Shown here: positions 1,233-39,970 of the stretch, piece after piece | Layout: the number at the start of each line of letters is the position of its first letter | How positions within the stretch are numbered: position 1 is the first letter of the stretch | Source of the DNA: Candidatus Pacearchaeota archaeon | GTDB lineage: Archaea > Nanobdellota > Nanobdellia > Pacearchaeales > GW2011-AR1 | Assembly (NCBI GenBank): GCA_016186365.1 | Contig: JACPLT010000006.1 | Span: 12,049-76,048 of the forward strand | Reading direction: 5' to 3' | Length of the DNA stretch: 64,000 nt | Notes under the pieces: generated by a model | What the model saw: the letters and a program-made list of their open reading frames with translations, nothing else | What the model was told of the DNA's origin: nothing | Databases searched by the model: none | Made by a program: the position numbers and the translations under genes

Positions 1233-3441
1233 AGAGAGAGTTGCTGAGGAAATTATTGAAAATGTCTTTGTAGGGGAGGGAGAGAAGAAACAGCCTTTAA
1301 AAAAACTAATTGCCGAAACTCTCGGAGACAAATATTCAAATCTAAGGCTAGTTAATCATGGGGCGCAATCTTACATATTTGAAGCAGAGTGGGGTCCTGC
1401 TGGGGAGACAAGAATAATTAAGGTTGATAGACCTATTTTAGAAGGTCTTAGAGCTAAGAGATATGCTGAAAGAGGATGCAATAATAGAAATGGTGTTATG
1501 CATCTTGCTAATTTGCCAGAAGCTAGCGAACATCATATAGTTGGATTAATAGATTTTGATGATTTGCAAAAAGATTATGGAATTACAATTTCAGTTCATC
1601 CTAGGATTAGTGGAGAAACTTTAGATGAAAGAATTTCTAGAGGTGAAACTCTAAACTTAAAATCTGTTAAAAAAGTATTTTCTGATGTTATTGATGGAAT
1701 GAGGCATTATATTGAGAGAGGACAATTGCATAGAGACTTGAATCCATCAAATATTATGATTCGGGCAGAGAAAGATAATCTTTCTGGAATTATACTTGAT
1801 TTTGAAAATGCGGGAGATAAATCTCAATTAACTGCTAAAGTGCTTCCAACTGCGGGCAATAGATGGATCACAGACCCCTTACTTAATTTTTCTGGAGAAG
1901 AAAGAGCTTATTCTGAGAAGTCTGAAATTTATTCGCTAGCTGATGATATTTATTTTTCAATTACTGGAAAACATGTTTTTGAGGTAGATCCTGATTCCAG
2001 GATATTAAAAGATAATCTTACTGGAGAGTCTGTTTTAGGCTCGAAGGGGATTATTGATCAGAAAAAAAGCAAGAAATTGCTGAAAAATTCAATTAAGCAA
2101 CTTCCTAGAGGTTTTAGAAGATTGGGGAAAGTTTTAAGAAAAGCTTTGAACTTTGATGAGACAGAAAGATATGCTTCTTTGGAAGATTTCGCAAAAGAAT
2201 TTGAAGAAGCAACAGAACCCGGATTAGTCTCCAGGTTTTTTTCTCATATCAAAAAGCCGATTTTTTTTGTTCCACTTATTGCAGGAATTGGAGTAATGGC
2301 TGCTTTTGGTGAGAGATTTTATGAAAAACAAATTAAAAAGAGAGATATACAATTGGCTACTGCTGTAGAAAATGCAAGCAAGCATAGAGTAGTCTCTGCT
2401 TGGCCTCCAGCAACCTTAGAATTGGAAAATAATCTTATTGATTTAAGACTCTATATAAGGAAAAAAAAGGGTTTTGAGCAATTATATTCTGATTTGGTAG
2501 ATGGGTATTCATCATCAAACACTCCAGCTTATATAAAAGCAAAAAAAGGAGAGGTTTTGCAGGTTATTCCTAGGGCATTCGCATTACCTTGGCCGAGAAA
2601 AGATTATTCTGTGCTCCCCGCTTTTCCTGTTAGAGCTTATATTGAAGGATTTAAAGGAGATAATAAAAATGGTTACTGCGGCGTGGAGTCTAAAGGGGGA
2701 GATTATTGGAGTTACGAAGGTTATTACATGCCTCCTGAATTAGAATTAAAGATTCCTGATAACACTCCTTCAGGGGTTTATCATTTAGTTGTTGAATTAG
2801 ATGCTCTTAATGATGATGAAAAAGAAAGAGCAGACAAAAATGGTCACCCTGTTATTAATGAAATTTTATTTGAAAAACCTGGAAGGGCTATTAGTGTCAG
2901 AAGAATTCCTATCCTAGTTGGAAATGTTAAAACTCCAGTAAGATTAGGAACGGCTTCAATTAATTACAATATGCATACTCTTGCCTTTAAGCATGCTGAA
3001 ACCAGAGAAAAAATCCTGCCACAAGGAATTATATATGAATTTTATGTTCCTGAATTAGGTTACAGTGAAAAATTTAACAAACGTACGGAATGGTCAAATT
3101 CAGACTTTTATTCTTTTTCATTGCCCAGAACAAATAAATCAGAAGAAGCTACACTGCAAGTTGTTATTAAAGATAGGTATAATGAGATAGTAGGATGTGA
3201 ATTCTTTCCAATTTCTACAAGAAATATTGGCAACGATATTTATTGTTGGGAACTTGAAGCGCCTAACAGAGAATTTTATGATAAAGCTGCAGGATATAGA
3301 ACACAAACTTTTGAAAGGCATAAAAATAGACCAATATCAACAAAAGCGTATGATAAGATAAAAGGGTTCAGAAAGGATATGGGATTTAGAATAGAAGAAA
3401 TGAAAAGAAATCAGATTATTAAATCTACAAAGAGAAATTAA
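1222..3441 (+). CDS. membrane-anchored eukaryotic-like Ser/Thr protein kinase with large C-terminal extracytoplasmic domain
   Basis: Catalytic loop HRDLNPSNIMI, DFG-like ILDFENAG, lysine motif RIIKVD. One TM helix IFFVPLIAGIGVMAAFG lies mid-protein, followed by an unassigned domain of about 380 aa. ATG 1222 is preferred to the track TTG 1207. Confidence 0.8.
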   Translation: MAVEERVAEEIIENVFVGEGEKKQPLKKLIAETLGDKYSNLRLVNHGAQSYIFEAEWGPAGETRIIKVDRPILEGLRAKRYAERGCNNRNGVMHLANLPEASEHHIVGLIDFDDLQKDYGITISVHPRISGETLDERISRGETLNLKSVKKVFSDVIDGMRHYIERGQLHRDLNPSNIMIRAEKDNLSGIILDFENAGDKSQLTAKVLPTAGNRWITDPLLNFSGEERAYSEKSEIYSLADDIYFSITGKHVFEVDPDSRILKDNLTGESVLGSKGIIDQKKSKKLLKNSIKQLPRGFRRLGKVLRKALNFDETERYASLEDFAKEFEEATEPGLVSRFFSHIKKPIFFVPLIAGIGVMAAFGERFYEKQIKKRDIQLATAVENASKHRVVSAWPPATLELENNLIDLRLYIRKKKGFEQLYSDLVDGYSSSNTPAYIKAKKGEVLQVIPRAFALPWPRKDYSVLPAFPVRAYIEGFKGDNKNGYCGVESKGGDYWSYEGYYMPPELELKIPDNTPSGVYHLVVELDALNDDEKERADKNGHPVINEILFEKPGRAISVRRIPILVGNVKTPVRLGTASINYNMHTLAFKHAETREKILPQGIIYEFYVPELGYSEKFNKRTEWSNSDFYSFSLPRTNKSEEATLQVVIKDRYNEIVGCEFFPISTRNIGNDIYCWELEAPNREFYDKAAGYRTQTFERHKNRPISTKAYDKIKGFRKDMGFRIEEMKRNQIIKSTKRN

Positions 3442-3442
3442 T

Positions 3443-4312
3443 CTACAGCTTGCTTACTAATAGATAATTATTCATTTTGATTGTTGTTTCTATTATCCCT
3501 GAAATATAAAAATCAATATTGTCCTTATTTTTCATTTTTGATTTTATTAATTCATATTCCTTTGCAAAATCTATTGTTTTTTCTTTATTAAAACTAAAAA
3601 ATAATTCTCTAAATAAACTGAGAAATTCTTTTGTTTCTGAAATAAGCGCTATTTGGGGTTTTGATGGCTTTATTCTCGAGCTTGAGGCCAGTTTTTTATA
3701 TAAGTCTCCTATCTCCTCAAGAGAAGTTATTATCCCATAGATTTGAGAGGTTTTTTCAAATTCCTTATACCCCTGCTTGTTAAGTATTCTTAAGGAAAAA
3801 TTCACAAATTTATTAATTGATGTATCTATATCAACTATGGGCTCTAGAGACTGATTTTTTTCTAATGCTTCTATTAACTCTTGAGCCATTGAGTCTAATA
3901 TTAAAAATATTCTTTGAATTAATTCATCTAAATCTTGATTTTTTGTTCCAGTTATATCTTTAATAATTAAACTTTTCTGGCTTTGTTTTATTATTTCAAA
4001 TCCCAGCAATTCATTAATTACCCTTTTTTGGAAATCTTTTATTTCTTCTTTGTTGGAAAAATTAACTTCTAATTCGTCTATCCCCTTAATGTATAAAGAC
4101 ATTAATATCCTGTTAATTAATGGGTAGCAATTAGAGATATTTATAGTTTGTCTTGTTTTTTCCTCTCTCTTAATGTTAGAAATTTCTATTTTATTTTCCT
4201 TCTCAATCATATCAACTTCGTCGCCCTTGCCGAGCTTGTTATTCTTTATCCATTTGCTCGGCAAAGAAATCATCATTGTTGCTGCGCCCTGCTTTACCAG
4301 TTTTCTTTTCAT
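3443..4312 (-). CDS. PhoU-like regulator with N-terminal AbrB/SpoVT domain
   Basis: N-terminus MKRKLVKQGAATMMISLPSKWIKNNKLGKGDEVDM is AbrB-like. The helical remainder matches the archaeal AbrB-PhoU architecture. Confidence 0.7.
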   Translation of the reverse strand: MKRKLVKQGAATMMISLPSKWIKNNKLGKGDEVDMIEKENKIEISNIKREEKTRQTINISNCYPLINRILMSLYIKGIDELEVNFSNKEEIKDFQKRVINELLGFEIIKQSQKSLIIKDITGTKNQDLDELIQRIFLILDSMAQELIEALEKNQSLEPIVDIDTSINKFVNFSLRILNKQGYKEFEKTSQIYGIITSLEEIGDLYKKLASSSRIKPSKPQIALISETKEFLSLFRELFFSFNKEKTIDFAKEYELIKSKMKNKDNIDFYISGIIETTIKMNNYLLVSKL

Positions 4313-4451
4313 GATTATCCTAATTTTAGGTGATATTTAAACTTTTCTAAAATATATATAGATTTAAACTAATATATATAGTTTAATAAAAAAGTTTAAA
4401 TCTGCTCTTTCTTAGTTGTTTTAACTAAATAGTAGTTAAATAACAACGAAA

Positions 4452-5627
4452 ATGAAAACAAAAAAACTTTCAATAATAAAAACAGCAATAGCTGCTGCAG
4501 CAAGCGCTGCAACAAGCTTAATCGGAGCGGGAATAGCTGCTGCAGATGAGCCTGCTATAAAGATAGGACCGGTTCCACAGGCAGTAAGGCTAAGAGATGA
4601 GCATACAAGAAATCTAGTGACTGATATTGACTCAAATAAAGCAACACTTGGAGTAGCTGGAGATAATGGAGAATTTTTGAGAGTATATAATTTTCTTGGA
4701 GACGGAAAGGGAAATGATTATACTGCTATGGGATTTGCTCCTTGGATTAAGTTCGGAGGATTAGAAGCAAGCGTTAATATGTTTGGAGTAGCTGGAGGCA
4801 AAGAAGGAATTGGAACTGAAACTAAGTTTAGTATTAAACCTTGCACTCTTTTCTTGAATTATGAAGAAAGCATGATTAAAGGAGATAATCCAACAAGAAT
4901 AGGCGGAGCTTTAGACACAAAAATAGAGAACACTACATTTGGATTTGGATTTGACCAGACAAATTCTCCTGTAATTAGAAATGCTTTGAATTTTAAGGTT
5001 TTTAGCGATGTAACTGGAAATGATCAGTTAGGAGCAGCTTATAACAGAATAGATAATCCTGAAATGAATAGTGTAGCAGCTTACTGGCTGCATCATAATA
5101 AAGATAATGCTAAATGGGGAACAAGAACATGGGGAAAATTTGATTGGAGTAATGAATCAGATTGTAAGGCACTTACATTGGATAGTATCTGGGCTCAAAA
5201 TCCCACTATGCCTAGTGTTTGTGGAGATTTTATTGTTGATAGAGGAAGCTTGAATGGAGGAATGTACAACAGAGGAGTTGTAATGAATCCTCTGCAAGTG
5301 GAAAGGTTTCCTTTAATAGCTAGAACTAAAAACGGATTTGCAGGAGAGATTAAATTTTTTGCAACAGATAAAGCAGGAATTTTAACCAGCTCTGTTTTTG
5401 GAGAGCTCGCATATAGATTTCCTCTTCCTGAAATCTTTGAACAGAAAACTTTGCTTGGATTTTCAATTAGCGACCAGTACAGCCTTGAGCCAAGACAAAA
5501 TGTAGTCGGCGGAAGCATGCTTTTGGATGTTGGAAATTTCAGGCTGGAAGTAAGCGGAAGGACAGGTACTTCTGGAAATAAGAAAGAAGAAATTTACGGA
5601 AGTGTGGGATATGCCTTTAAGTGGTAG
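4452..5627 (+). CDS. secreted beta-strand-rich protein, possible beta-barrel (porin-like)
   Basis: Signal peptide MKTKK + LSIIKTAIAAAASAATSLIGAGIAAA|DEP. Many short amphipathic/aromatic strands (TTFGFGFDQT, WGTRTWGKFDW, GNFRLEVSGRTG). The C-terminus is ...GSVGYAFKW. Confidence 0.6.
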   Translation: MKTKKLSIIKTAIAAAASAATSLIGAGIAAADEPAIKIGPVPQAVRLRDEHTRNLVTDIDSNKATLGVAGDNGEFLRVYNFLGDGKGNDYTAMGFAPWIKFGGLEASVNMFGVAGGKEGIGTETKFSIKPCTLFLNYEESMIKGDNPTRIGGALDTKIENTTFGFGFDQTNSPVIRNALNFKVFSDVTGNDQLGAAYNRIDNPEMNSVAAYWLHHNKDNAKWGTRTWGKFDWSNESDCKALTLDSIWAQNPTMPSVCGDFIVDRGSLNGGMYNRGVVMNPLQVERFPLIARTKNGFAGEIKFFATDKAGILTSSVFGELAYRFPLPEIFEQKTLLGFSISDQYSLEPRQNVVGGSMLLDVGNFRLEVSGRTGTSGNKKEEIYGSVGYAFKW

Positions 5628-6620: not shown

Positions 6621-6935
6621 TTAAGTCTATAATTCAACTTAACATCCTTCGTTTAGTTTCTAACTTATAATATAGCAGAAATTTGATTTTTCTCCCTCAA
6701 TAATAGGGGTGAATCAAGAAAACCTTTTAGAATAGATTGTAGGTTTTCTGGATGATCAGAAATGCCCAAAGCAAATAGCATTTCTGACACAAATAAAATT
6801 ATCTGTGAATCAAGAAAACCCTTTAGACTAGATTATGGGTTTTCTGGATGATCAGAAATGCATACGATAAATAGCATTTCTGACATAACAATTTTACGGG
6901 AGTTAGGGGATGTTAAGTTCTATAGTTTACTTAAC
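6621..6935. repeat. TIR-bounded MITE-like element, copy A (composite, carries nested tandem hairpin units)
   Basis: Left end TTAAGTCTATAATTCAACTTAACATCC and right end GGGGATGTTAAGTTCTATAGTTTACTTAA are inverted. Both are homologous to the ends of copies at 55118..55276 and 59711..59867. Confidence 0.6.
6710..6890. repeat. tandem duplication (period 96 bp) of a double-hairpin unit
   Basis: The unit TGAATCAAGAAAACCyTTTAGAmTAGATTrTrGGTTTTCTGGATGATCAGAAATGC-n12-GCATTTCTGACA occurs twice, with unit starts at 6710 and 6806. Confidence 0.85.
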
Positions 6936-21467: not shown

Positions 21468-22264
21468 AAGCTGAAACTAATTTATCAACTGGAATTCCAA
21501 ATACCTGGTGCCCGGGATGCTTTAATTTTTCTATTTTGGCAGGAGTGAAGAATGCAATTGCAAAAGAAATAGCTGAAGGAAAGAAAAAAGAAGATTTTGC
21601 AATTGTTTCTGGAATTGGATGCCACGCCAAGATATTTGATTATATCCATTTGAATGGTATAAATAGTCTGCATGGAAGAGTTTTGCCTGTCTGCCTGGGA
21701 ATGAAAGTTGCAAAGCCGAATCTTAGTGTTATAGGATTTTCTGGTGATGGAGATGCTTATGCAGAGGGGATGGAGCATTTGATACACATGGCAAGGTTTA
21801 ACCCTGATGTAAAATATATTGTTCATAATAATCAGGTTTTTGCTTTAACAGTGGGACAGCCGACTCCTACAACTGAATTAGGATATAAAGATAAAACAAC
21901 TCCTGATGGAGTGAAACTGATGCCTTTGAATCCTATCAAGCTGATGCTTGCGGCTAATGCGGGCTTTGTTGCGAGAGTTTATGCTGATGTCAAACAGATA
22001 GAAGAAGTTTTAAGAGAGGCATTCAAGCATAAGGGGTTTGCATTTATAGAGATTATCCAGCCCTGCATTATTTTTCATAAAGATGAAGGAGTAAAAGAAA
22101 AAATGTATTCCTTGCAGGAACAGGGGCATGATAGATCAAACTGGCAGGAAGCTATGAAAAAAGCAGAAGAGTTTGATTATAATAATGCAGAAAAAATTCC
22201 TTCCGGTATATTTTATCAGAAAGAACGAGCAACATTTGAGGATATTTTTCTTAGGTATAGATAA
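21464..22264 (+). CDS. 2-oxoacid:ferredoxin oxidoreductase, beta (TPP-binding) subunit
   Basis: WCPGCFNFSIL, GFSGDGDAYAEGMEHL, NNQVFALTVGQPTP. An alternative in-frame ATG lies at 21452. Confidence 0.85.
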   Translation: MKAETNLSTGIPNTWCPGCFNFSILAGVKNAIAKEIAEGKKKEDFAIVSGIGCHAKIFDYIHLNGINSLHGRVLPVCLGMKVAKPNLSVIGFSGDGDAYAEGMEHLIHMARFNPDVKYIVHNNQVFALTVGQPTPTTELGYKDKTTPDGVKLMPLNPIKLMLAANAGFVARVYADVKQIEEVLREAFKHKGFAFIEIIQPCIIFHKDEGVKEKMYSLQEQGHDRSNWQEAMKKAEEFDYNNAEKIPSGIFYQKERATFEDIFLRYR

Positions 22265-22346
22265 TTGCGATAATTAGTATGCTGCTATTGCAATTATCTA
22301 TCTCTATAATTGCACGACATTTTATACTAATCCATGCAATTATAGA
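22257..22346. repeat. two adjacent 12-bp-stem hairpins built on ATAATTGC/GCAATTAT
   Basis: ATAGATAATTGC (22257-68) pairs with GCAATTATCTAT (22290-301). TCTATAATTGCA (22303-14) pairs with TGCAATTATAGA (22335-46). They lie between the convergent OFOR-beta stop and the tRNA 3' end. Confidence 0.6.
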
Positions 22347-22353
22347 TAATGTA

Positions 22354-22425
22354 TGGCTGTGAAGGGAGTTGAACCCTCCACTCCGGCCTTATGAGAGCCG
22401 TACTCTACCGCTGAGTTACACAGCC
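22354..22425 (-). tRNA. tRNA with CAU anticodon (elongator Met or Ile2; not initiator-like)
   Basis: Reverse complement: GGCTGTG-TA-ACTC-AGCGGTA-GAGT-A-CGGCT-CTCATAA-GGCCG-GAGTG-GAGGG-TTCAACT-CCCTT-CACAGCC-A. Confidence 0.9.
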
Positions 22426-22487
22426 ATCTAAACCTTAAAATTTGGCTATTTAAAAGGTTTTTTAAACTCTTTTTTATTAACTAATTT

Positions 22488-35872: not shown

Positions 35873-36009
35873 GGGCCTATAACTCAACCTGGATAGAGTA
35901 CTCGGCTTCGGAGGTAAGGAACCAAGGTTTCTTAACCATCAACCTCCTTTAATTGGGAGATAAAATGAGAAGCAACCGGGGAATGAGGGTTCAAATCCTT
36001 CTAGGCCCG
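35873..36009 (+). tRNA. tRNA-Arg(UCG) with 63-nt intron at 37/38 (intron 35912..35974)
   Basis: Acceptor GGGCCTA/TAGGCCC. T-arm GAGGG-TTCAAAT-CCTTC. Anticodon stem CTCGG/CCGGG. Loop CTTCGG|A. Exon/intron pairing GGAGGT..ACCTCC. Mature length 74 nt. Confidence 0.75.
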
Positions 36010-37090: not shown

Positions 37091-37513
37091 CTAAAGGGTT
37101 TTTTTGATGTCAGAAATAAATTCCTTTGTATCTTCTTCTAATTCTTCAGCAATTGAATTAAAAACCAGCTCATCGTCTATTTCTCCGTATTCATGCACAA
37201 TAAAATTTCTCATTCCCTTTGCTTCTTTTAATCTTTTAGACAGCTCTGAGTTTATTATCTTCTTATTTTCTAAAACTAAAAAAATTTGTTCTTCTTCTTT
37301 TGGAGATTCCAACTCTTTGTATCTTGAAAACAAAAAAGCTAAATCAATTATCGCGACTATAATCTTCTCAAAGTATCTCTCACACGCGGCTTTAGTAAAA
37401 CTATCATTAGTATATTCTTCATAACTGCTTGGAAAATGTTGATAAAGTTCCTCAAGATATTTTTCAATTTCTTTTATTTTTTCATCTATTCTTTTTTTGA
37501 ATTCCTCTTTCAT
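37091..37513 (-). CDS. HepT-like HEPN (DUF86) toxin
   Basis: Rx4HxY motif in GMRNFIVHEYGEID. Confidence 0.8.
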   Translation of the reverse strand: MKEEFKKRIDEKIKEIEKYLEELYQHFPSSYEEYTNDSFTKAACERYFEKIIVAIIDLAFLFSRYKELESPKEEEQIFLVLENKKIINSELSKRLKEAKGMRNFIVHEYGEIDDELVFNSIAEELEEDTKEFISDIKKTL

Positions 37514-38003
37514 AAATCACCTTTCCTTTTTCATCTATCTCTTTTTTTATTTTTTCTGGAAGAATGTTATAAACTTGTATATCTATTATTTCTGGCAATT
37601 TGCTTAATGTTTTTATCCTAAATTCTGAAGCTTCTCTTGAATTTATACTGCTGAATTCCACAGCAATATCTATATCTGAACGAAATGTTCTCTCATTTGC
37701 TGCAGTAGAGCCAAAAAGCCATATTTTTTTTATTTTTGAAACCTGTTTGCTTTCAAATATAACCTCTTTCGCTTCTTTTATCAATTCTTTTATATTCTGC
37801 CCTTTTTTTAGCTGAAATTCCGAAATATTTTCAGACAATTTTCTAACTGCTTCAAGTTTAGTTTTTATATCCCGCGATAATCTTGTTCTTTCAGATGGCT
37901 TAAGTTTTATTCCTAACAGCTGTTTTTCAATTATTTCCAGCTCTTTTTTTCCAAATATTTTTCTTATTTCAGGATTTTTTCTTATAGTTTCTATTAAGCC
38001 CAT
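37482..38003 (-). CDS. MNT-type nucleotidyltransferase antitoxin with N-terminal extension
   Basis: GSx10DxD motif LFGSTAANERTFRSDIDIAV. It overlaps the HepT start by 32 nt. Confidence 0.8.
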   Translation of the reverse strand: MGLIETIRKNPEIRKIFGKKELEIIEKQLLGIKLKPSERTRLSRDIKTKLEAVRKLSENISEFQLKKGQNIKELIKEAKEVIFESKQVSKIKKIWLFGSTAANERTFRSDIDIAVEFSSINSREASEFRIKTLSKLPEIIDIQVYNILPEKIKKEIDEKGKVIYERGIQKKNR

Positions 38004-38416: not shown

Positions 38417-38509
38417 TATAGAAAATTCTGTTAATTTGAATAAGTTTTCCGCAGAATTTTCTATCTGGATAATTCTGAAAAAGACTATTCTAATCATCAG
38501 AATTATCCA
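38417..38509. repeat. conserved double-hairpin module (copy G)
   Basis: TATAGAAAATTCTG..CAGAATTTTCTAT-C-TGGATAATTCTGA..TCAGAATTATCCA. Shares its outer stems with 59051..59143. Confidence 0.65.
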
Positions 38510-38557
38510 TAAAAATAACAGGTTTAAAAAGATTAGTTTTAAATATCTTCTATACTT

Positions 38558-39480: not shown

Positions 39481-39890
39481 ATGAGCAGACAAACTGGCCA
39501 GGAATGGCGTGGTTTTTTTCCTAGAAGAGTATAAACTTAGTCTGAGCTCTAATTTTGCTTTAGACAGGAGGGTTTACCCTTGAGAAAATTTTTGCTTATT
39601 CTGCTTATGATTATTTAAATGATGTTAAAGAAGATGGGAATTATGAAAAATTAACGAAAAAATATGGCAAAGAATTCTTCGAAGATATAGAGAAAATAGC
39701 TGAAGAGGCATTTATTATTGATTCTGATAGAAGGGTTACAAGAAGATTCTTATTAGACTTATTGAATGAACATGATAAAAATAAAAGAAAGTTTTATTGC
39801 GAGATGAGGCATGTATTCATGCGTTTTATGAATTCTATAAGAATAAATTTAAATATGCTGCAAGATAGGGTATATAGACAATTCGGGTAA
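39481..39890 (+). pseudogene. possible decayed gene remnant
   Basis: An 18-codon ORF from ATG 39481 sits behind a TATA-like TTTAAATA about 28 nt upstream. It is followed by a 108-codon stop-free frame (39564..39887) with no usable start codon until its last 46 codons. Confidence 0.3.
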
Positions 39891-39913
39891 TTTTGTCACT
39901 TTTTGTCCCAAAT

Positions 39914-39965
39914 TCTCTATCTGGAGAATTAGGATACGAGGTAACTTAATCAACCTAATTATCCA
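39914..39965. repeat. single-hairpin copy (I) of the TCTATCTGGA-AA..TTATCCATAA module
   Basis: TCTCTATC-TGGAGAATTAGG..CCTAATTATCCA-TAAC, ending 5 nt before the proS ATG. Confidence 0.5.
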
Positions 39966-39970
39966 TAACT

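Follow-up and report, generated by a model that had tools for sequence, protein, structure and literature searches.

A 93-nucleotide double-hairpin repeat in DPANN archaea, probably a MITE-like palindromic DNA transposon

The window analyzed here, a 64,000-nucleotide stretch of contig JACPLT010000006.1 from Candidatus Pacearchaeota archaeon, includes a tRNA-Met gene and the genes csaA, proS and leuS, and close to each of these lies a module made up of two consecutive hairpins. There are four full copies in total, designated J, G, I and H, all of them on the plus strand. Each module extends over 91-93 nt, runs from TATAG to ATCCA (TTATAGA in J), and is directly followed by TA. The copies, with their scores under a covariance model (CM R1) and their DNA folding z-scores, are as follows:

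22256-22348, plus strand: copy J, full double hairpin (CM R1 67.9 bits, E=1.7e-11; DNA fold z=-5.6)
38417-38511, plus strand: copy G, full double hairpin (CM 94.6 bits; DNA fold z=-7.1)
39873-39967, plus strand: copy I, full double hairpin, partly decayed (CM 87.5 bits; DNA fold z only -1.9)
59051-59145, plus strand: copy H, full double hairpin plus TA (CM 94.3 bits; DNA fold z=-6.3)

The original prediction, made from the letters of the window alone, had described G, H and I, and these sequences were found in place exactly as it had written them. In the case of copy I, it had recognized only the second hairpin. However, the copy is a complete double hairpin (39873-39965), in which the first hairpin, TATAGACAATTCGGG...CCCAAATTCTCTAT, has two mismatches and the second has one. 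The count of three loci likewise held for those three but fell short by one, since copy J was recovered by a covariance model built from the family, a scan that had been suggested at the outset. In copy G, the segment from TATAG to ATCCA occupies 38417-38509 and the flanking TA is at 38510-38511; the arms of its first hairpin (38418-38430 and 38452-38464) and of its second (38466-38478 and 38497-38509) are 100% complementary. Copy J consists of 91 nt plus the TA, adjoins the 3' end of the tRNA-Met gene (22353-22426, minus strand) with a gap of a few nucleotides, and has a doubly compensated outer stem in its second hairpin (TCTATAA/TTATAGA). The positions relative to neighboring genes are as originally described: 8 nt separate copy G from the csaA ATG, copy H lies 49 nt upstream of the leuS ATG (59001, minus strand), and the ATCCA of copy I ends 5 nt before the proS ATG (39971), with 3 nt between the flanking TA and that ATG.

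Exact matches to the outer stem of the second hairpin (TGGATAA-N20-50-TTATCCA) occur twice in the window, in G and H, against 0.06 expected, and exact matches to TATAGAAAA-N20-50-TTTTCTAT occur in the same two copies against 0.01 expected. For the two hairpins of G and H, RNA folding z-scores relative to shuffled sequences are -6.8 and -3.8, respectively, and the corresponding DNA values are -7.1 and -6.3. The four copies share only 64-73% pairwise identity and are old and diverged. Approximately 5 kb of further sequence from the same contig contains no additional copy.

Other features lie in the same surroundings. Adjoining csaA on the minus strand (37091-38003) are an MNT-like nucleotidyltransferase (PF18765/PF01909) and a HepT-like RNase (PF01934), which form a module of the toxin-antitoxin type. 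A 137-nt tRNA match at 35873-36009 on the plus strand (Rfam, 44 bits) was missed by ARAGORN and presumably represents an intron-containing tRNA. The leucyl-tRNA synthetase (56110-59001, minus strand) has an unusual architecture for a LeuRS, in which a NUDIX hydrolase domain (residues 374-491; PF00293, E=2.5e-13) is inserted directly after the editing domain.

The family extends far beyond this window. When one genome per species was scanned with a pattern, most matches were due to chance, but 15 were true double hairpins, all of which are in Woesearchaeota, Pacearchaeota or Nanoarchaeota MAGs. A scan of metagenomes with a stricter pattern returned at least 120 loci, mostly from groundwater samples, which contain at least 97 distinct 93-mers. 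Altogether, more than 130 further copies are present beyond the window, and decayed, nested, interrupted and variant copies are among the members of the family. The columns that appear to be invariant (TATAGA.AA, TCTATCTGGA.AA and ATCCA) were fixed by the search patterns, and matches to the HMM and CM vary at these columns, as in TCTATCTGTATAA, TCTATCTCTATAA and TCTCTAATGGATAA. Searches of IMG/VR, PLSDB and INPHARED found no copy of the element.

The element proper is approximately 91 nt long and has TA on each side. Its left end reads TATAGA.AA and its right end reads TTATCCATA. Each half is a hairpin with a stem of 12-14 bp and a loop of 18-21 nt; the stems start at position 2, one nucleotide from the left end, and finish at the last base before the TA. 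The outer 14 nt form terminal inverted repeats, TATAGAWAATTCTG and TATGGATAATTCTG, which match at 12 of 14 positions. Stop codons are present at both ends, and the element is non-coding, with no ORF. The inner stems usually have the same sequence in the first and second hairpins, and the loop consensus of the first is the reverse complement of that of the second. These shared stems and mirrored loops make the element one large imperfect palindrome, centered on the junction TCTATC/TGGA, and the mirrored halves imply that the four arms are a single sequence in the order forward, reverse, forward, reverse.

Structure statistics were obtained from 58 representatives of less than 93% mutual identity, taken from among the matches listed. 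In the two-hairpin model, 96.1% of the stem cells pair, and 11 of the 25 pairs exhibit two-sided change; column 7/43, for example, is A-T in 27 representatives, G-C in 21 and T-A in 2. The observed covariation was reached by none of 500 shuffles, and when the structures are slid by 1-3 columns, pairing falls to 35-51%. Two claims made for the window copies, that the inner stems change in a compensatory fashion and that stem complementarity is under selection, are thus borne out in the family as a whole. A fold that combines long-range pairing with a central hairpin was rejected, as it pairs at 83.6% versus 96.1%, and column 7 covaries solely with column 43. Of the 1448 stem cells of the 58 representatives, 1382 are Watson-Crick pairs, 10 are G·T and 10 are A·C. 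Such rare wobble, equal on both strands, suggests a constraint at the level of DNA rather than on a transcript of one strand. In-place changes in three orthologous pairs comprise no stem and four loop differences, a sample too small to support a conclusion.

Covariation and constant length could also be expected of a small structured RNA gene family, or of an RNA cis-regulatory leader, selected for its secondary structure. Either would fit the proximity of three window copies to gene starts, two of the genes being those for aminoacyl-tRNA synthetases, and an RNA element tied to gene starts was one of the models initially put forward. However, neither strand has more G·U than A·C, the copies lack a promoter that recurs at a set distance to their left or right, and no Rfam family scores above noise, let alone at the gathering score. 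The H/ACA, C/D-box, 5S-like, split-tRNA and SRP-like classes were considered individually and rejected, given the continuous 13-bp stems, the lack of a pocket or boxes, the lack of an enclosing helix in the window copies and the absence of Rfam hits.

The genomic placement of the copies also argues against an RNA of this type. Gene arrangements around 109 distinct insertions, among the matches listed, include 27 (+,+), 24 (-,-), 15 divergent and 11 convergent cases, and positions behind gene ends or between convergent genes are as common as positions before starts. Approximately 100 insertions are thus spread over all intergenic arrangements, and the association with gene starts that was suspected from the window is not seen across them as any preference beyond the effect of short intergenic spacers. 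Such MITE-like placement is what the original prediction had itself named as evidence against its reading. Additionally, as described below, unrelated flanks contain identical copies and some orthologous sites are empty, and the closest relatives of the eamA locus of the window have no copy. Taken with the balance of G·T and A·C and the lack of an Rfam relative, these observations render an RNA family or leader extremely unlikely.

When 1038 ORFs from 137 loci were clustered, no family was enriched near the element, and the largest clusters of neighboring ORFs encode AAA+ ATPases, an Lrp-like regulator and similar proteins, none of which looks transposase-like by eye. At approximately 10 loci, minus-strand ORFs enter the right end of the element and stop at the TAA of TTATGGATAA, an overlap of 9 nt. 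Either the native stop codon was replaced upon insertion, or the overlap is an artefact of ORF calling.

Although a link to gene starts is not a property of the family, two of the window copies have a specific relationship to promoters. In the upstream regions of 45 window genes, the genome promoter motif GAAAGCTTTATAAA mostly starts between -34 and -36 relative to the ATG, and window messages therefore appear to be leaderless. Upstream of csaA and proS, the motif is present at a greater distance:

38523-38536, minus strand: native BRE/TATA promoter of csaA, CTAATCTTTTTAAA, displaced 93 nt from the ATG by copy G
39842-39855, plus strand: native BRE/TATA promoter of proS, AATAAATTTAAATA, displaced 93 nt from the ATG by copy I

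When copy G (38417-38509) is deleted in silico, the csaA motif falls at -35 with a PWM score of 6.9, whereas the occupied allele scores -2.7 at -34 to -37. Deletion of copy I (39873-39965) places the proS motif at -36 with a score of 6.6, compared with -5.3 for the occupied allele. Scores of at least 6 occur at 0.3% of window positions. The canonical spacing regained on deletion indicates that G and I are insertions between the TATA box and the start codon. As a result, transcripts of csaA and proS would begin with the element, as a structured leader of approximately 95 nt, or would be served by a weak start inside it. Since G and I are downstream of native promoters, their transcription as 5' leaders is very probable. 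In other genomes, removal of short-gap copies did not restore a promoter, so promoter displacement is particular to G and I and not family-wide. The eamA homologues were used as a synteny test, but the closest of them share just 66% identity, lie in a different gene order and do not carry the element, so there is no direct empty site for G or I.

Other promoter-related features of the window include two GAAAGCTTTATAAA-type promoters at 422-468, located between divergent genes, which together make up a perfect 13-bp dyad (TAAATGTTTCTAT/ATAGAAACATTTA). The leuS gene is without the canonical motif at -35, and a separate short hairpin, CCAGAAAACCGCCGTTTTCTGG, is located between copy H and its ATG (59024-59045, plus strand).

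It might be proposed that the element is a portable bidirectional promoter/operator cassette, with an outward-facing BRE/TATA-like box in each loop and a regulator bound to the dyad of the arms. Both halves do have the same outward loop consensus, AAAA..GT.ATATAA..AA, approximately 20 nt from the element end, and an internal start signal would be useful to csaA and proS, which G and I have cut off from their native promoters. Many copies also immediately precede a resident promoter, from which they are separated by 31-43 nt. However, when the loops are scored with the genome promoter matrix, the median best score is approximately 3, as opposed to 9-13 for real promoters, and no position is favored, which suggests that the element is not in general a portable promoter. 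The loops are no more alike within an element (0.58) than between elements (0.57), many copies face gene ends, and the inner stems differ between copies of one genome, a poor fit to a single regulator that binds the arms. A role as a promoter cassette is therefore very unlikely.

Direct evidence for mobility comes from comparisons among loci. One identical 93-mer is present in at least five unrelated flanks, and another is present in two. When the left and right flanks of each copy were joined and searched among the loci, exact presence/absence of 93 nt was found in four orthologous comparisons (L132 versus L228; L185 versus L122; L222 versus L228 and L167; and L121 versus L137). In one homologous region, there have been three independent insertions at different TAs.

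The flanks also define the target. The TA at the left end of every copy was set by the search pattern, but the right end was free to vary, and there, in 101 distinct insertions among the matches listed, position +1 is always T (100%) and position +2 is A in 99%. The composition of the left flank mirrors the complement of the right over three bases on each side, with C at 1% at -2 and -3, and G at 8-10% at +4 and +5. Mirrored flanks, together with TA at both ends, indicate a target that is symmetric around TA. At the insertion point in the empty relatives, TA is present in two of four cases and CA in the other two; the CA is attributed to divergence, as the flanks are 75-92% identical, but is flagged as unexplained. 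Neighboring copies on one contig share their orientation in approximately 10 of 13 pairs, including 4 of 4 in the window, and there is a weak association of orientation with GC skew (50 of 79, p=0.02).

The element is a widespread and nearly length-invariant MITE family across DPANN orders, common in groundwater archaea. No description of a 93-nt DPANN family was found in the literature. In a census of MITEs across prokaryotes, a Woesearchaea genome is reported to have a very high density, 105 per Mb, although individual families are not described there (PMC11602168).

Taken together, the data are best explained if the module is a small, non-autonomous, MITE-like palindromic DNA transposon with arms that must be self-complementary, and this is most probably its identity. 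Insertion takes place at a TA within a symmetric A/T-rich target and leaves TA on both ends, as is seen in the flanks. The TA would represent a 2-bp target-site duplication, as in IS630/Tc1-mariner-type MITEs, and an enzyme encoded elsewhere would mobilize the element in trans. Only copies with pairable arms would be mobilized, with the hairpin, a cruciform or a strict dyad presented to the enzyme. A need for pairing of this kind would account for the compensatory, exclusively Watson-Crick stem changes and the drifting loops of the lineages that spread. Elements of the IS630-Tc1-mariner group are known to recognize and duplicate TA (PMC8533490).

This explanation has its own difficulties. A transposase that binds double-stranded DNA has no obvious need of hairpins within each end, so that a plain IS630-type mechanism does not account for the strict stem complementarity. 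With only three orthologous pairs compared in place, selection by the host on copies already inserted may also play a part. An enzyme that cuts after TA and makes no duplication could likewise yield TA at both ends, and the shared orientation and weak GC-skew link are not predicted by simple cut-and-paste transposition. An autonomous partner with matching ends was not found in the window, in the 1.86 Mb of element-bearing loci, or in IMG/VR, PLSDB or INPHARED. A phmmer search with a Mos1 mariner query returned nothing in the six-frame ORFs of these 1.86 Mb of partial-genome loci, which is weak evidence, as the homology would be distant. Long inverted repeats flanking an ORF were detected only in the hairpin-repeat clusters of locus L205 and in a duplicated region of L167.

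A model based on a different class of enzyme also merits consideration. If the element were REP/REPIN-like or derived from IS200/IS605, an HUH (Y1) enzyme (RAYT/TnpA) would recognize single-stranded DNA hairpins, cut next to TA, and act through a single-stranded intermediate. Stems that are strictly Watson-Crick and compensatory, with G·T equal to A·C as in a DNA hairpin, would be natural in such a system, and the module does resemble a REPIN or BIME in being a tail-to-tail doublet of palindromic units. The same genomes also contain related hairpin repeats with TATAG ends, both single and clustered, copies are weakly biased towards one strand, and no terminal remnant of a transposase is present. 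The target, however, has two-fold symmetry about TA, and TA is found at each end, while IS200/IS605 elements recognize an asymmetric target that lies solely on their 5' side and produce no duplication. Moreover, the stems reach the ends of the element, so that linker and guide segments like those of an IS608-type system could not be accommodated, and the ATAG is inside the stem, unlike the free 5' tetranucleotide of E. coli REPs. A phmmer search with IS608 TnpA (Y1) found nothing in the six-frame ORFs of the 1.86 Mb around the 137 loci, again weak evidence. The early suggestion of a hairpin recognized by a nucleic-acid enzyme therefore stands in part: a hairpin recognition structure is viable, but the HUH/RAYT proteins proposed as examples are disfavored by the symmetric TA target, by hairpins that extend to the ends, and by the lack of a Y1 homologue in these loci, and mobilization by such an enzyme is considered unlikely.

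Several other hairpin repeats occur in the window and in related loci. At 6711-6792 and 6809-6888 on the plus strand are two tandem units of approximately 80 nt that constitute another double-hairpin repeat, GTGAATCAAGAAAACC[loop]GGTTTTCTGGATGATCAGAAATGC[loop]GCATTTCTGACA. The two units differ by compensation (AACCT/AGGTT versus AACCC/GGGTT), and although their R1 scores are weak (26 and 19 bits), the repeat may be distantly related to the 93-nt element. Locus L205 contains dense clusters of related hairpin repeats at 3380-3560 and 4245-4860, for example TATAGACATTCCCGTT...AACGGGAATGTCTATA, with nested and reversed copies around an ORF of 189 amino acids, and these clusters resemble bacterial BIME clusters. 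In L082 (5355-5510), and likewise in L101 and L118, the 93-nt element is found within the loop of a TA-flanked single-hairpin element, TATAGCGAGAGACCAAAA...TTTTTGTTCTCTCGATATA, for which an uninterrupted form exists in L205 (4262-4310); comparison of the two forms indicates nested insertion. In L236 (7796-8035), a first hairpin is followed by approximately 190 nt of other structured sequence and then by a degenerate right end, CAGAATTCACCATAA, an arrangement that probably arose when another insertion interrupted the element.

It is tempting to place these repeats in a broader context, in which DPANN archaea (Pacearchaeota, Woesearchaeota) would have their own counterpart of the REP/REPIN world: a TA-flanked hairpin superfamily with stems kept by selection, because a nuclease or transposase, possibly a domesticated one, would recognize them in folded DNA. 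Some resident copies would have been co-opted as structured 5' leaders or start signals for essential, otherwise leaderless genes such as proS and csaA. Such a superfamily may include both doublets, of 93 nt and of 80 nt (6711-6888), as well as the forms in L205 and L082 that have one hairpin or occur in clusters. As a whole, this scenario is rather unlikely.

With the MITE-like transposon as the preferred explanation, what looks like a conserved RNA fold in reduced DPANN genomes, complete with covariation, is a mobile repeat and should not be annotated as a regulatory RNA. Model R1 can be used to mask these repeats and to track insertions in Pacearchaeota and Woesearchaeota MAGs. Two questions are raised: which enzyme moves a TA-flanked, self-complementary element in genomes of approximately 1 Mb with few recognizable transposases, and how essential leaderless genes such as proS and csaA are expressed with a 93-nt pair of hairpins between TATA and ATG.

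Stowaway-like MITEs, derived from IS630-Tc1-mariner transposons, are represented in prokaryotes by MITEEc1 and in archaea by SM1 of Sulfolobus. Like these, the element is short, non-coding and multi-copy, with terminal inverted repeats; it is flanked by TA in a symmetric A/T-rich target, is intergenic, and exhibits presence/absence polymorphism. Unlike them, each of its terminal repeats is a 46-nt hairpin kept complementary by compensation, its length is almost fixed at 93 nt across DPANN orders, and a parent IS or DDE transposase was not found in the loci searched. A second parallel is provided by the Correia elements (CREE/NEMIS) of Neisseria, bacterial elements of approximately 100-150 bp that are flanked by TA, have ends beginning with TATAG, and contain GGAT(T)AA. 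They are often adjacent to promoters and are co-transcribed as hairpin leaders, and they have long had no known transposase. The shared features are the TATAG...GGATAA ends and promoter-proximal insertions, although so short a resemblance of the ends may be due to chance, and the DPANN element has two local hairpins, in contrast to one long hairpin formed by 26-bp terminal repeats.

Other similarities are to elements moved by HUH enzymes. As in REP/BIME/REPIN systems with their RAYTs (TnpA-REP), the units are palindromic and compensatory, are arranged as an inverted doublet of approximately 100 nt, are strictly intergenic, and comprise many diverged families per genome. The element differs in having TA on both sides, a symmetric target, no free conserved 5' tetranucleotide, and an archaeal host, and no RAYT-like gene was seen in the 1.86 Mb of loci. 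The PATEs of haloarchaea and Nezha of cyanobacteria are MITEs derived from IS200/IS605. They resemble the DPANN element in having two hairpins in approximately 100-150 nt, no coding capacity, and a known occurrence in archaea. Their ends, however, are asymmetric, some distance separates the hairpins from the cleavage sites, and the target is confined to the 5' side, whereas here the halves are mirror images down to the loop consensus and the stems reach the ends. The element belongs to the MITE class: it is of the Stowaway/IS630 type in its ends and target, and resembles a REP doublet in its palindromic units.
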